Assembly: GCA_964016885.1 (NCBI GenBank)
Contig: OZ024742.1
Coordinates: 77,748,001 to 77,812,000, forward strand
Direction: 5' to 3'
DNA length: 64,000 nucleotides
Source: Eledone cirrhosa
Taxonomy: Eukaryota
The stretch's first letter is position 1. Every line of letters starts with the position of its first letter. Under the pieces are notes generated by a model. That model searched no databases and had not been told where the DNA came from. It saw only the letters and a list, made by a program, of their open reading frames with translations. Below are positions 11,898 to 47,727 of this stretch, one piece after another. The position numbers and the translations under genes are program-made.

Positions 11898-12066
11898 GAA
11901 GTAAGTTAATTTTTAAATTTCTTTTTAATTTTCTTATTTTACGTCTTTCATATTATTGTTCTGCATCCTCCTGCATTGAACCACTTAGGTACTATGACAT
12001 AACTTATGTATTTGCTAGCATTAGTGTACATCTGTACGCATATGTTGGTAGATATACTAATTCTCT
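11898..12066 (+). mobile_element. PLE tail fragment, same family as 34446-35375
   Basis: Similar to about 34800-34950; includes the hairpin GTTC TGCA..TGCA TT GAAC at 11958-11981; lies between (TA)n tracts. Confidence 0.7.
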
Positions 12067-12116
12067 GTATATATATATATATATATATATATATATATAT
12101 ATATATATATATATAT

Positions 12117-12266
12117 ATAATCAAATCTAGCAAGCTTTAAGAATAAATTTTCTAACAGTGTTTGATAAATAGTGAACGGAGTTAACGCGAACTAGCTGCG
12201 GTCAATTATTTGTCGGAGATTTCCCTGTTAGAAAATTTATTCTTAAAGCTTGCTAGATTTGATTAT
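12117..12266. repeat. 42-bp inverted repeat, probable PLE 5' inversion
   Basis: 12117-12158 is the reverse complement of 12225-12266; it abuts (TA)n; a bulged hairpin follows at 12354-12395. Confidence 0.8.
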
Positions 12267-12728
12267 GTATATGGTTAATTATGCTGATTAGAAGAAGAAA
12301 TAGTATATATTTTAATATCTGATTGATTCTATAGACATGAGTTATGATATAATGCTCTGATTTTTTTATTTTAATTTATTAATTCTTCATTGAGCTTAAA
12401 CGTGAACAGTTGCAACACATATATGTATCCTTGATTTAATTTAATTTAATTTTATGTATGTGATAACCTCTCTCTCTCTCTCTCTATATATATATATATA
12501 TATATATATGTATATATATATACAAAATTAAGATAAATTAAATGAATTCAATCTAAATCGAAATTGTGGGTGTCATGCCTTAACGGAATGCGCCTTATCG
12601 CCCGGTAAATAAGCTCAAAGACTTTGTAGGTGCGAGCATTTTATAATAACTAGGAATTTATTTATATATATGTTGATCAATTCCTAGTTATTATATATAT
12701 ATATATATATATATATATATATTATATA

Positions 12729-12960
12729 GAAGTGGTTAAACAACAATTAGTTCACCATACTGAGAACAATTGTTTCACATTAGCGGATCCTCAGCTCGTA
12801 ATGGACATGGTTATACGCTGTTCCGTATAACCATGTCCATTACGAGCTGAGGATCCGCTAACGTGAAACAATTGTTCTCGGTATGGTGAACTAACTGTTG
12901 TGTAACCACTTCAACCTAACTCGTCCCATGGACTGAGTGCTCTACCACTACGGATAATTA
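12729..12960 (+). mobile_element. Mini fold-back PLE derivative: 89-bp arms, 6-nt loop, HHR-like motif in each arm, plus tail
   Basis: 12729-12817 vs 12824-12912. CGAG CTGAGGA TCCGCTAACGT GAAA CAATTGT T CTCG at 12843-12880 (stem II weak). Confidence 0.75.
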
Positions 12961-12976
12961 TATATATATATACATA

Positions 12977-43111: not shown

Positions 43112-43785
43112 CATCATCATCATCATCATCATCATTTAATGTCCATCATCCACGCTTGGGTTTGAACGGGTGATTTCTCACTTGAGGCAAGAGTGGTTGT
43201 CTTGCTCGCATAGGACTGTCTGGCGGGTTTTCTCCGACTGGATGCTCTTCCTAACACCAACCACGTTTACAGTGTGGACTGGGACGTTTTTACCGTGTTA
43301 CCTACACGGCCACATTACAGCGTGGACTGTGTGTTTTTTTGTCGTGACACCTACACGACCTAATTTGTTTCGGACTGGATGTTGTGGTACCAACATAACT
43401 TTACATTGAAAAGGGTGGGGGTAGTGGAACGGGGGTGTATTTTGTTAGAGGTGCCTACTGACTGTAGTAGGTTTCACTATATACTTAGGTAAGGCGGGTC
43501 TTCTGTATTACTGCGTAGCGCCAAAGATCTCGATCCAGTGACATTGTCTTGGAGAGGTGTAAATGTGTGAGGTCGGAATTTATCAAATCGTCCCAGGTTT
43601 TTCTGGGTCTGCCTACTCCGTGGCTACCGTCTCTTTTTATTGCCCTGCACCTTTTTTATACAGCTGTGTCGTCTTTCATGCGCATCACGTGACCATACCA
43701 ACGTAATCTTCTCTCGAGTAAACAACATCTGATCCCTCTTATTTCTAATTGTTCCCTTAGTTTGTTTATGCTTTGCCGTTCACGT
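43112..43785 (-). mobile_element. RTE-group LINE 3' fragment with (ATG)n tail
   Basis: RRLRWYGHVMRM...GRPRKTW...DRDLWR; (CAT)n at 43112-43135. Confidence 0.8.
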
Positions 43786-44302
43786 ATATTACTATTACAC
43801 ATAGAGATATGTATGTTTATTTGTGTGCTAGTGTGTGTGTGTGTAGGAAGATGATGCTATTAGTAGAAATGGAGGAGGGAGTTGTGTGTGTGTATGGGTG
43901 TTATGTGTGTGTGTGGGAGTATGTTAAGATGGAGAGAATATATATATTTTGTGTGTGTGTATGTGTGTAGGAAAGTGATTCTATTAGTAGACATGGGGGA
44001 GGGAGTTTTGTGTGTGTGTGTGGGTGTTATGTGTGTGTGGGAGTATGGTTAGCATGTTAAGATGAAGAGAATATATATATTGTGTGTGTGTGTGTAGGAA
44101 GATGATTCCGTTAGTAGAAATGGGGGAGGGAGTTATGTGTATGTTGGGGGGGGGGGGGTAGCATGTTAAGGTGTTAGAGTATTAACTTATGTTAAGGTTT
44201 ATTTAGTTCTGGTTTTCATTTTCTAAAGTAGGTGTTATGTGTGTGTGTGTATGTATGTGTTGTTTGGATGTTTAGCATGGTATGGTGTTGACATAGTGTA
44301 TA

Positions 44303-45465
44303 TTAAACTATATTTAATGCTGATCTATATTTTTGAATAAACATATTTTCCTTAATTATCCGTATTTGTTCTGTTGTATTGTCAGCGCAATGGTAAAATG
44401 GGAAGACTTGGAACTTGGGTGTCTTATTACTTGCGCATATGTCTAGATGTGCACTTAGTGGTATCTGTCTCGTAATTTTTGGCGATGAACTGACTGTCAT
44501 TCTGTTTCTGAGTGTGAGTTTAGTTTGTCCTATATAATCTTCATTGCATCCTTTACATTTAATGGCATAAATTAGATTCTTTGATGTGCAAGTGAAGTGA
44601 TATTTTACAGCAAAATTTTGTCGTGATTGAAATGTATACGTGTTGCCTTCAATGAGGTGAGTGCAGGTTCCACAATTAGAGCGACCACATTTTTTGACAG
44701 TTGGTTGTGGGTTTGTGGTAGGTAATTTGGCATTGGTGTAATGTTTTTAGGGATTTCGGTTGTCTTTTGCTTCAGATTATTTCGTGTATTTCAAGGGCTT
44801 TTTTCATTCTTGGGTCTTGTTTCAATAGTGGGATGTTCTTTTGAATAGTGCTGTAAGCTTCCGCATTTCTTGGGTTGTGTGTTGAGATTTATGATAGAAT
44901 TTTGGACGTACCTTGCATTTGTTTCTATTTTCGTAATTCATCATTGTCTATTGCTTTAGCCCATTCTATTCCATTATTTATTAGTAATGGTGGGTACTCT
45001 CTTTCGAGCAGAATTTCCTTTAATTTTTGAAGTCTTTTATTTCGCGTTTCATAATTGGAGACAATTGTGCCAATTCTTCTTGCTAGGTTAAAAGGAATGC
45101 TCGTCTTTGTGTGCTTTGGATGGTTGGAGGTGAATAGCAGGTATTGTTTGGAATCTGTTGGTTTGTAGTGTATGTCAGTTTCAATATTTGTGTCTTTTTT
45201 TAAGATTAAGATCGTTGTATTCCACTGTGAATTGGATGTGGTTATTGATACCGCTAATTAAATTTTTGAAAGCATTCAGTTGGTCGAGTGTGTGGGACCA
45301 AAGAATGAGATAATCATCCAAGTAGCGTTTCCAATTCTCTGAGAAATATTTGTGGAAGTTCAATCCGTATTTTGATTTGGACTGTTCATATATCTGGACT
45401 TCTAAGTATGCCATGACTAAGTTGGCATAAGTTGGAGCGCCTTTTGTACCCATAGCAGTCCCAGA
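44303..45465 (-). pseudogene. PLE RT-thumb, Cys-rich linker and GIY-YIG (Neptune-like), frameshifted
   Basis: GTAMGTKGAPTYANL, WKRYLDD, YKPTDSKQYL..SNHP, CGRSNCGTC, FTCTSKNLIYAIKCKGCNEDYIGQT. Confidence 0.85.
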
Positions 45466-45707
45466 TATGACTGCATCAACCAACCAAACTACACTCATAT
45501 ATGAAAAAACAACCTGAGTCCCCCCCCCCCCTTGTTTGAAGAACTTTGTAACGCAAACTAGCGAGAAATTTATTATACTTATTCACCAACCAATCAAATT
45601 ACTTCTCTAAAAACCTGGCGTTTCGAGCCACTCTTTTCCATATAAAACAAGTAACATTCAAAGACCAATCAGATGTGAGAAAAACCACAGACCCTCCATC
45701 TCAACTC

Positions 45708-45748
45708 TACTTTTGAAAAGTAGAAGAACTGCGAAACCGGTAAAGGTA
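45708..45748 (+). ncRNA. Minimal type I hammerhead ribozyme, U3-A8 variant (family D); copies at 42508-42546 and 33298-33333 on the minus strand
   Basis: CTT TTGAAAA GTAG-AAGAA-CTGC GAAA CCGGT A AAG; the TTGAAAA core is shared by all three copies. Confidence 0.75.
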
Positions 45749-47727
45749 CCAAATAAATATATATATATTTTTTTAAATAAGACTCCAGTTGCGTTTTCGA
45801 TTTCACCTTTTTTCCTTATACTTTCACTCGTGTAGGACACCTCGGTTATTTTTCATTTTGTAAACCCCGACGGCTATTTCTGGACTAAATTAGAAATTTT
45901 AGCGTGGTAGTAAATAGCCGAACTTTTCAAGGGGTAATTCCTTATATGGTAAGATTGTAAGATTGGTCAAAATGTCTCGTAAACGCAATTAAATCTTTCA
46001 TAGTGGTTGGTAGGTGGGAGGTGGGTTGGCTGAACTTAACTGTAGAACAATGAGGGGGTGGATGGAGCCAGTCAAGCGTTGAAAGTGAATTCTATACTGC
46101 AAATTATAAGGAGTGTGTATGAAATTAGGCTTGTAAGGAAGCAGGTGAAATAGGATTCAGGAGGAATTATGACCGTCAAATTAACCATTGCCAGCTTTAT
46201 TTATTCTTAATCTGGCCTTAAAGTAATACGGACCTATTATGTTTAATTCAGACTATATAAATTATTTTCGTCGTTGAAATTTGAGAAAACAAAATTACAT
46301 TCAATTATTTATTCCTAATTATTTCAGTATTGTAAGAATTGGCCCATTCCTATAGTAAACATGTGAATATTTTCGAAACATTTGCACTGCATATGAGCAT
46401 GTTTAAATGATCACGTAATTCCAGTATCATTAAAAGATATTAATTTATTGATACGAATTAGAATTATAAATTTGTAGAACACTAAACACAGACGAATTAA
46501 TTTTTTTTATCTTTTGACGTTCTAATCACAAAACACGCTGAAGTTCGATTTGTTGCTCTTCCTATCGACTTTTAGTGGGATATAAAATTAATTATCAATT
46601 CAATGGTTAGGCGGGGATACTTAATTAAAACCTGTCTCCTGTAAATGTGTGCAATTCTAACTGTATTATACATATTCATTATCTCAATGTAAAAGTACTG
46701 GTTATGAATTCAAACCTGGTGATACTCGAACCAAGATCATCGAATCCAGAAGCTAATTATATTAGGGCATGTAGTATAACGATTTACCGTTTTTCTCATA
46801 ATACCATAAGTTATGTATTTAATTGTATATATCAGAACGGATATAATGTGAGCTTAGTTAACTACTCTGAACAAGCTGTAGTCTGCGACCTGCAATAACG
46901 TAAATGCAAAATTAAATATGTTCTGAGAACTCATACGGTGACATAACATATAAGTAAAGGTATGCCGTTAACTTTCGCTATTATATCACAACAAACTTTT
47001 CAGTAAATCTGCTTTATATTTAAAACACTAACTTCAGTATTAAAGTATCATTAAAGTTTAACATTAGTTTTAAAGCAAATACATAGTAAAATATTAGTAT
47101 AGAATGTTTAAAAAATCTGTAAAAATACGAAATTGAAAATCAGCGCAGTTAATATGGCTACAAACATGTATCCATCCGAATGTATATCTAAATGTATTTT
47201 ATATCCATATGTGTTAAATAATATATATATGTGTGGTGGTGTGGTTGCGTGTCTGTGTGTGTCTGTATGTGTACATTTAATTTGCTTTTCTTTTCATTTT
47301 ATTATAGATATTTTAACATATATATAAGGGTTGCCATCAGATACCAGTGTATACAATGAATGAATTAATTCAATAATTTTGTATCTCTTGTCCTTTTTCC
47401 CACTTTTGAATTCATAATGCTCTGACGAATTGATCCATTATTTAATTAATTCATTGATTGAGAAAAACTGGTTACGGGTGGATACTCTTATATGTATGTC
47501 TATACTTATATATATATATATATATATATATATATATATATATGTGTGTGTGTATATATATATATATATATATATATATATATATATATATATATATATA
47601 TATATATATATATATATATATATATTCAAGATTGTATATTTACACATGTTTATGCACACTCACCTGAAAACATACACGAATACCCACATACACACAACTA
47701 CAATACTATCATATAATTTTTATAACG

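Follow-up and report, generated by a model that had tools for sequence, protein, structure and literature searches.

The window, a stretch of 64,000 nucleotides from Eledone cirrhosa (contig OZ024742.1), contains PLE reading frames, hammerheads (HHRs), and a recurrent small hairpin. All ORFs that could be linked to the canonical form of this hairpin were Hydra-type, an assignment based on protein motifs. One Hydra-type element has its ORF at 24958-26610 (+), and a 5'-truncated Hydra-type ORF with a CxCX5C linker, CxxC, and CxH lies at 29894-31381 (+). The CxCX5C linker precedes a C-terminal GIY-YIG-type EN in ORF 29894 and in 37 of 42 full-length homologues and is decayed in ORF 25495, while CxxC and CxH at the end of the EN were present in all three ORF pieces of the window and in 41 of the 42 homologues; CCHH was absent, as judged by eye. 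The window ORFs are 5'-truncated and lack the N-terminal part; RWR and DKT were found in an ORF of the 14224 family (L276), and RW[KR] and DK[TS] were found in 37 and 42 of the 42 homologues, respectively. Insertions were into (TA)n, and canonical pLTR hammerheads accompany the hairpins at 24551, 32918, and 42326. The 14224 family carried a canonical hammerhead at none of 30 loci and a CAGAAGA variant instead. A broken RT-EN ORF with a CX4CxxC linker (44303-45582, -) was Neptune-type by motif.

The leader of these elements carries the hairpin twice, in the order hammerhead, first hairpin (HP1), second hairpin (HP2), and ATG. A type I hammerhead at 20306-20376 (-, core to cut site) precedes the HP1 at 20178-20208 (-) by 98 nt, and a sister copy ends 7 nt before this hairpin. 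Another type I hammerhead (24607-24655, -) lies 56 nt before the HP1 at 24532-24551 (-), which belongs to the tail of an inverted arm of the element with the ORF at 24958-26610. On the plus strand, a hammerhead with a CCGAAGA core (32829-32867) stands 51 nt before the HP1 at 32918-32951, itself 3 nt past an inverted-arm end (28558); one with a long stem II (34148-34261) stands 63 nt before an aberrant HP1 at 34324-34377 (pair 3 is C.A in its family); and a type I hammerhead at 42237-42268 (Rfam Hammerhead_1, 31.7 bits, below the gathering score) stands 58 nt before the HP1 at 42326-42347, which is 8 nt past the arm of a 4.3-kb fold-back holding a Hydra-type EN fragment. The hammerhead-to-hairpin distance, originally given as 40-95 nt, thus measured 51-98 nt in the window, and the hammerhead preceding the HP1 at 37731-37765 (+) proved to be part of another element. 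This last HP1 is of the same family as that at 14224-14269 (+), the HP1 of an autonomous Hydra-type element with an open frame of 713 aa, in whose genomic copies 24 nt separate the end of HP2 from the ATG.

The remaining HP1 copies include 11958-11981 (+), of the same family group as 34848; 12354-12395 (+), whose relatives end approximately 7 nt before it and whose HP2 was seen in a read-through copy; and 20818-20848 (+), 3 nt past a fold-back arm end. A variant with a 1-nt bulge, likewise seen in two L081 copies, lies at 12919-12938 (+), 6 nt past a fold-back arm end, and its family is tied to the Hydra-type ORF at L081. The HP1 at 19591-19616 (+) has a second copy at 19081-19106 (-) and an HP2 at 19009-19026 (-), 7 nt after the distal end. 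Further HP2 copies were found at 20086-20102 (-; one base mutated) and 20572-20588 (-; lower stem TCTC/GAGA), both of the 20208 family, and at 23839-23855 (+), of the 23663 fold-back family. A tandem non-coding element of ~520 bp carries a type I hammerhead (34713-34782, +), an HP1 (34848-34871, +) with copy ends at -5 or +112..120, and an HP2 at the tandem junction (34966-34986, +), just past the distal end. These HP2 sites and the second HP1 copy were absent from the original prediction, which had overlooked four HP2 copies in the window. Two non-canonical hairpins occur in Neptune-type surroundings: that at 33396-33416 (+) belongs to the Neptune-type family and is placed identically with respect to the end, and that at 45826-45846 (+) has a C.C mismatch and lies 8 nt past the proximal end of the 44303-45582 element.

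The motif consensus is RYUC-Y[stem-loop]R-UN-GARY, often followed by an RCU flank, and many HP2 upper stems comprise just 1-2 bp. All 16 stretches originally listed were confirmed in their coordinates and end letters, and RNAfold formed the lower stem in 13 of the 16, the exceptions being 34324, 45826, and 33396. The stretch at 13336-13366 (-) had to be withdrawn as a motif member: it is part of the tail of an element on the opposite strand, and the true hairpin of that element is a decayed HP1 at 13298-13323 (+), intact in other copies. The HHR family upstream of the withdrawn stretch has a different hairpin, a canonical one, in its other copies. It had also been claimed that three of the four lower pairs covary, which was retained for pair 1 (A-U 9, G-C 8, A.C 1, and G.U 1, counting, out of 22 family rows, those where position 1 is a purine and its partner a pyrimidine; Fisher p 0.001, with families not independent). 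The change at pair 2 was confined to one lineage, and that at pair 3 was private: the 34324 family has C.A in 28 of 29 copies, and the ACCC/GGGT of 34324 is a mutation of 1 of the 29. The C-G pair described as invariant is replaced by a C.C mismatch at 45826 and 33396, and the bulge, described as YY (TT/TC/CC), was observed as U-N, i.e., TT, TA, TC, or TG.

The hairpin is real and occurs beyond chance. In the window, 16 motif starts were counted against 5.1 +/- 1.4 in 30 block shuffles, a circular comparison because the motif was derived from the window. In 800 kb of held-out sequence, 58 motifs with a 4-bp upper stem (vs 16-31) and 97 with a 3-bp upper stem (50-71) were found, and there was no excess with a 6-bp upper stem. 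Among 16 pair/bulge classes compared, the sole clear enrichment was that of a U-first bulge next to a C-G top pair (239 vs 93 and 100), a C-first bulge giving 97 vs 58 and 46; this comparison argues against a generic hairpin excess as the cause. Readings as a hammerhead stem or a SECIS-like element were rejected because neither the positions nor the consensus fit. Rfam returned no match reaching the gathering score for the full leader and no hairpin match among the 150 of 188 window matches listed, which consisted of microsatellite-driven miRNA noise and two sub-threshold hammerheads.

The predicted bias in position and strand relative to hammerheads was borne out in 1.6 Mb of held-out sequence, where the strict motif lay +30..110 nt 3' of 18 of 148 cut sites; single cases fell at +130..210 and on the other strand and none upstream, and shuffled controls gave a mean of 0.25 (maximum 2). 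A relaxed count of 39 of 148 was set aside because a single locus, a tandem array of 17 copies, inflates it. Most HHR clusters among these 148 hammerheads were without the motif, for which the element end, and not the hammerhead, is the fixed landmark. Copy ends were counted in families whose reference holds both hairpins (8 of 9 kept; the 12354 family was left out because its reference held a (TA)n tract): 51 ends fell before HP1, 60 before HP2, and 2 elsewhere, i.e., 111 of 113 before a hairpin. The gap, counted up to where the (TA)n target begins, was mostly 6-10 nt. HP1-HP2 spacing ranged from 78 to 166 nt across the eight families, and the distal end tracked HP2 every time. The 3' ends of the copies are fixed and abut (TA)n, their 5' ends are scattered, and AU-rich runs lie upstream of both hairpins. 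Both hairpins are retained in the non-coding tandem elements, and the 34324 family functions with an unusual HP2 and with C.A as its pair 3.

A fold-back scan blind to the motif yielded 98 asymmetric and 6 symmetric insertions after de-duplication. The asymmetric ones held the strict motif in 23 cases and the relaxed motif in 35, and 33 of these 35 hairpins start +5..+10 after the short end; the chance expectation before de-duplication was 0.12 (strict) and 0.79 (relaxed) of 116. The other 63 were without even the relaxed motif and, by eye, comprised decayed copies, other clades, and other repeats, so tails also form without it. Tails without the motif were likewise seen in the T3 family (CX4CxxC linker) and in several short-tail families, and the Neptune-type tail had the C.C mismatch hairpin instead of the canonical motif. 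In the supplement of Craig et al. (2021), 3 of 7 exact 3'-arm matches were in the Naiad/Chlamys files, none with a hairpin by eye, although line breaks may hide matches. This non-Hydra comparison covers few clades.

Two hairpins were detected in 18 of 30 non-redundant Hydra-clade leaders from other organisms (shuffles, 0.5, maximum 3; reverse strand, 2), with an HP1-HP2 spacing of 55-72 nt and the ATG 15-42 nt past HP2. The first upper pair, unconstrained in the search, was Watson-Crick in 36 of 36 hairpins (26 C-G and 10 U-A). Outside E. cirrhosa the lower stem is sequence-invariant, so covariation there rests on this one upper pair; the flank after GAGC was ACTN in 34 of 36. A covariance-model scan recovered neighbouring hairpin pairs in 25 of the 30 loci, 9 of the hits being training rows. 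Because MAFFT left the variable loops unaligned, the seed of this model consisted of 9 of the 36 hairpins, all equal in length. Built on other organisms, the model missed most of the copies in the window, where its best E values were 0.015 and 0.94. The hairpin was visible by eye in published coral and sea cucumber Hydra consensi, and in 3 of the 6 new Hydra-clade consensi of Craig et al. (PMC8557442), with weak variants in 2. A conserved, strand-specific cis-element of PLE pLTR tails is upheld, and the description of its families as unrelated and cross-clade is not: conservation of the hairpin in Hydra-clade elements elsewhere means that they share descent.

In the Poseidon element PAc, the tail is bounded by two internal sites at which RT starts, and RNA located 3' of the start is required (Frangieh et al. 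2024, PMC11167929). The two fixed 3' ends and one-sided extension of such a tail were also found here, and we consider it probable that RT is anchored by each hairpin, that each thereby determines one of two internal start sites, and that the PLE tail results from this. The most plausible role of the putative docking hairpin is RT binding; it would hold the element's RT in the RNA and fix an internal start just 5' of itself; by analogy with PAc in vitro, the fixed 3' ends would be the RT start sites. The protein may contact the UC/UNGA core and the RCU flank. With one of two RT molecules sitting on each hairpin of a single RNA, priming would use nicks in the two opposite DNA strands. The interval between HP1 and HP2 would then constitute the tail: the RT starting before HP2 would copy it and the one starting before HP1 would skip it. 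HP2 itself would be copied solely in tandem read-through. More tentatively, and with rather less than even confidence, a dimeric RT loaded by the twin hairpins could prime both target strands at once, giving rise to the tail and the asymmetric fold-backs; a homodimer prediction with the N-terminal 480 residues of a Hydra-type protein gave no answer either way (score 0.01). Wobble counts did not favour the sense strand (G.U vs A.C, 18:15 and 7:8), and the predicted stem probability was slightly higher in sense (0.87 and 0.71) than in antisense (0.66 and 0.58).

These wobble counts are compatible with a motif acting on DNA, in which the GIY-YIG EN would recognise a cDNA or tandem intermediate, as a single-stranded hairpin or through the near-palindrome GAG-YR-CTC that the 3' arm makes with its flank, and would trim the ends by cutting a few bases before it. 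The ACTN flank fits such a site, the D. virilis EN required the tail for cleavage (cited in PMC11167929), and Craig et al. (PMC8557442) ascribed the tail to EN-mediated resolution. We nevertheless regard DNA action as unlikely, as a double-stranded site does not account for pairing across very unequal loops or for the C-G/U-A switch, and PAc in vitro links tail ends to RT starts (PMC11167929). Those same experiments bear on the possibility that the hairpins direct RNA processing 5-10 nt upstream, with RT then starting at the new 3' ends in a LINE-like manner: it predicts the same two fixed genomic ends, but PAc initiates internally on unprocessed RNA (PMC11167929) and no nuclease candidate was identified, which makes it quite improbable.

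The hairpins might instead be stop signals on an antisense template, resembling a telomerase boundary, with RT stalling before a protein-bound hairpin. Antisense templates have been proposed for PLEs (PMC3846280) and the stems fold in antisense too, but fixed 3' ends at (TA)n with scattered 5' ends are the pattern of 3'-end initiation, and we judge this very improbable indeed. That the AU-rich runs anneal to the (TA)n primer and solely set the ends, leaving the hairpins for packaging or translational control, is suggested by the presence of such runs before both hairpins and by the proximity of HP2 to the ATG (15-42 nt); against this, only 2 of 113 ends used other sites despite the AU-rich leaders, and both hairpins are kept in non-coding elements, so that we give it little credence.

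RT anchoring by the hairpins would address how PLEs pick their start sites and why the tail is one-sided. The sole in vitro PLE study proposed an unmapped protein-binding motif (PMC11167929), and since the hairpin is small, doubled, deeply conserved, and at a fixed distance from each end, start-site choice is directly testable. Since telomerase RTs have the PLE RTs as their sister group (PMC8557442), an RNA element setting template register is of interest beyond PLEs. The hairpin may serve as a marker for Hydra-dependent non-coding repeats and, if the dimer reading is true, could provide programmable insertion with a portable ~25-nt start signal.

Points in common with PAc are a pair of 3' ends, a one-sided tail that may be absent, a hammerhead not far upstream, and a putative requirement for RNA 3' of the start. 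Unlike the PAc tail, which is 30-40 bp long and within the ORF and for which PMC11167929 defined no RNA signal, the HP1-HP2 interval here is 55-166 nt long, lies before the ATG, and has its own hairpin copy at each end. Protein motifs, (TA)n targets, canonical hammerheads, and tandem or inverted insertions are shared with the Hydra clade (Craig et al. 2021, PMC8557442); hairpins are unmentioned in passages and supplement parts of that paper, and "hairpin" occurs 0 times in its main text. The non-LTR retrozymes, which are thought to be PLE-derived, are likewise tandem and non-coding, with a type I hammerhead in repeats that are a few hundred bases long, and passages of the sources name no common mobilisation cis signal for them (PMC7229834; bioRxiv 10.64898/2026.07.22.740005). 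HP1 and HP2 are a candidate for this signal. No description of the twin hairpin was found in print. LINEs have one stem-loop, on the 5' side of the start, and each insertion receives a copy of it. The hairpin described here, by contrast, is present twice, each time 3' of a proposed start, and is left uncopied by the RT that it would position. What the two have in common is a small stem-loop by the RT start that is shared with non-autonomous partners, as in the stringent LINEs of eel (UnaL2) and zebrafish (PMC1636434, PMC4176376).

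The hairpin in the leaders and tails of the Penelope-like elements (PLEs) is real and conserved. All 16 stretches named in the original prediction as instances of 5'-RYYC-[upper stem/loop]-YY-GRRY-3' (the strict motif) were present in the window, of which 13336-13366 proved not to be a member. To avoid circularity, a held-out sample was drawn, consisting of 160 stretches of 10 kb spaced evenly across other parts of the same genome. In this sample, the strict motif lay on the same strand, as predicted, 30-110 nt 3' of 18 of the 148 hammerhead cut sites. The counts for comparison were 1 farther downstream, 1 on the opposite strand, none upstream, and a mean of 0.25 in shuffles. 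Among 16 classes of top pair and bulge, clear enrichment was observed only for C-G with a U-first bulge, and the refined consensus yielded 97 matches (7-11 in shuffles). In 59 tail families, pairs 1 and 2 of the lower stem were both paired in 17 of 24 matches to a core-only search (shuffles 1.5, maximum 7), and the first two upper pairs were paired in 14 of 29 matches to a lower-stem-only search (shuffles 2.7, maximum 8). Several predicted details required revision: the actual bulge is U-N rather than YY (TT, TC, or CC), the pair-3 change at 34324 taken as covariation was carried by 1 of the 29 copies, and the supposedly invariant C-G pair under the bulge is a C.C mismatch in Neptune-linked copies.

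The hairpin is positioned relative to the element end. When the window was compared with itself, sister copies or opposite fold-back arms terminated 3-8 nt ahead of the hairpin in eight cases. In the family of the hairpin at 34848, a non-coding tandem repeat of ~520 bp, 30 loci chosen for carrying the tail (the one-sided extension between the proximal and distal ends) showed 15 ends at -5, 1 at -2, 31 at +112 to +120, and 10 elsewhere, while 25 further ends reached the query end, representing tandem read-through. A motif-blind scan retrieved 98 asymmetric and 6 symmetric inverted insertions; the tails of the former started with the strict motif in 23 cases and a relaxed motif in 35, the latter located at +5 to +10 in 33.

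Where tandem copies read through, a further copy of the motif (HP2, HP1 being nearer the hammerhead) was found 3' of the distal end, including five copies from four families in the window (19009-19026, 20086-20102, 20572-20588, 23839-23855, and 34966-34986). For eight families, the reference contained both hairpins, and of their 113 ends abutting a microsatellite, 111 fell at HP1 (51) or HP2 (60), mostly 6-10 nt before the hairpin; the count included ends up to 25 nt ahead of the hairpin start or up to 3 nt past it, with shared TA bases assigned to the target. Members of the 14224 family form the leader of an autonomous Hydra-type ORF, whose ATG was preceded by HP2 in 24 of 30 loci, with HP1 and HP2 together in 13. 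Many copies of this HP2 carry a C(UUCG)G tetraloop (e.g., locus L285).

No canonical hammerhead was observed in the leader of this abundant family at any of 30 loci (L268-L297; window 14160-14215 (-)), and a CAGAAGA...GAAA variant occupied the expected place in 13 loci. If this variant is inactive, as is possible, the hairpins would function without a hammerhead. A CCGAnGA core replacing CUGAnGA also recurs at the family level (window 32829-32867 and 28605-28643; held-out clusters H8 and H10). The source of the window is an animal genome of 3.0 Gb, rich in (TA)n and PLEs, and nested PLE fragments at 11-47 kb include two Hydra-type ORFs, one Neptune-type ORF, many hammerheads, and fold-back insertions. 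The (TA)n tracts adjoining element ends serve as insertion sites for other elements, and because of the resulting nested chains (12120-47000), hammerhead-to-hairpin assignments were misled (37549 versus 37731; 13497 versus 13366). This zone is flanked by non-PLE LINE-type RT fragments (646-2331, 53113-54475, 57164-59439, and 61158-63319).

The proposal of a cross-clade motif was not supported: the only ORFs linked to canonical copies were Hydra-type, and the other linked sequences were non-coding repeats with no known partner. The motif was missing from a Neptune-type tail, from another family with a CX4CxxC linker, and from several tails of 34-47 nt. Among the few clades sampled, the hairpin is clade-specific, with clades assigned by motifs described in the accessible parts of PMC8557442 (Craig et al.) and not by a tree. 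In the Neptune-type family, a constant hairpin of its own, with the C.C mismatch, is identical in 20 of 25 copies (45826-45846 and 33396-33416; L323-L352). Its distance from the proximal end matches that of the canonical hairpin, of which it is possibly a functional analogue; read-through copies of this family were not observed. Tails of a short-tail family (36-46 nt) open with a TTTC/GAAA stem and a pyrimidine bulge (L095 5395(-), L036 4928(-), and L163 3436(+)), possibly a distant form of the motif, and the different hairpins directly 3' of distal ends in motif-less families (L154, L186, L172, and L059) may be clade-specific equivalents.

Scanning metagenomes with a Hydra protein alignment yielded 77 loci, among which 45 ORF starts had sufficient upstream DNA, corresponding to 30 non-redundant groups. 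Two hairpins were found in 18 groups (shuffles 0.5; reverse strand 2) and at least one in 27 (shuffles 6.4; reverse strand 19), in the order cut site, 40-54 nt, HP1, 55-72 nt, HP2, 15-42 nt, ATG. The lower stem sequence was invariant in these leaders, and the first upper pair alternated between C-G and U-A. A covariance model recovered the hairpin pairs in 25 of 30 loci and was weak on divergent copies of the Eledone cirrhosa genome. By eye, in the accessible part of the Craig et al. supplement, the Hydra-1_Ajap consensus opens with HP1 and HP2, Hydra-2_Ajap and Hydra-2_Amil have HP1 close to the 3' end, Hydra-1_Crog and Hydra-1_Amil contain weak variants, and Hydra-1_Obim has no clear hairpin. 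The hairpin is apparently undescribed in print; no description was found in a literature search, beyond whose reach lay most subscription papers and Repbase notes, and which covered the accessible parts of PMC11167929, PMC8557442, bioRxiv 10.64898/2026.07.22.740005, PMC4209133, PMC3846280, PMC7229834, and PMC2377424, among others.

Two hairpins, two fixed ends, a fixed offset, and asymmetry are established for the element ends. One less likely explanation is recognition of the hairpin by the endonuclease at the DNA level; neither the wobble test nor the folding test distinguished RNA-level from DNA-level action. Also less likely, the hairpins could direct RNA processing, act as antisense stop signals, or serve packaging or translation. 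We consider a putative RT-docking mechanism of the twin hairpins likely, in which each would anchor an RT, lying a few bases 3' of the point at which that RT starts, and the tail would correspond to the interval between the two hairpins. For PAc, a Poseidon PLE studied in vitro, the accessible parts of PMC11167929 report that both DNA strands are nicked and extended, that two internal start sites of the RT delimit the tail, and that RNA 3' of the start is required.
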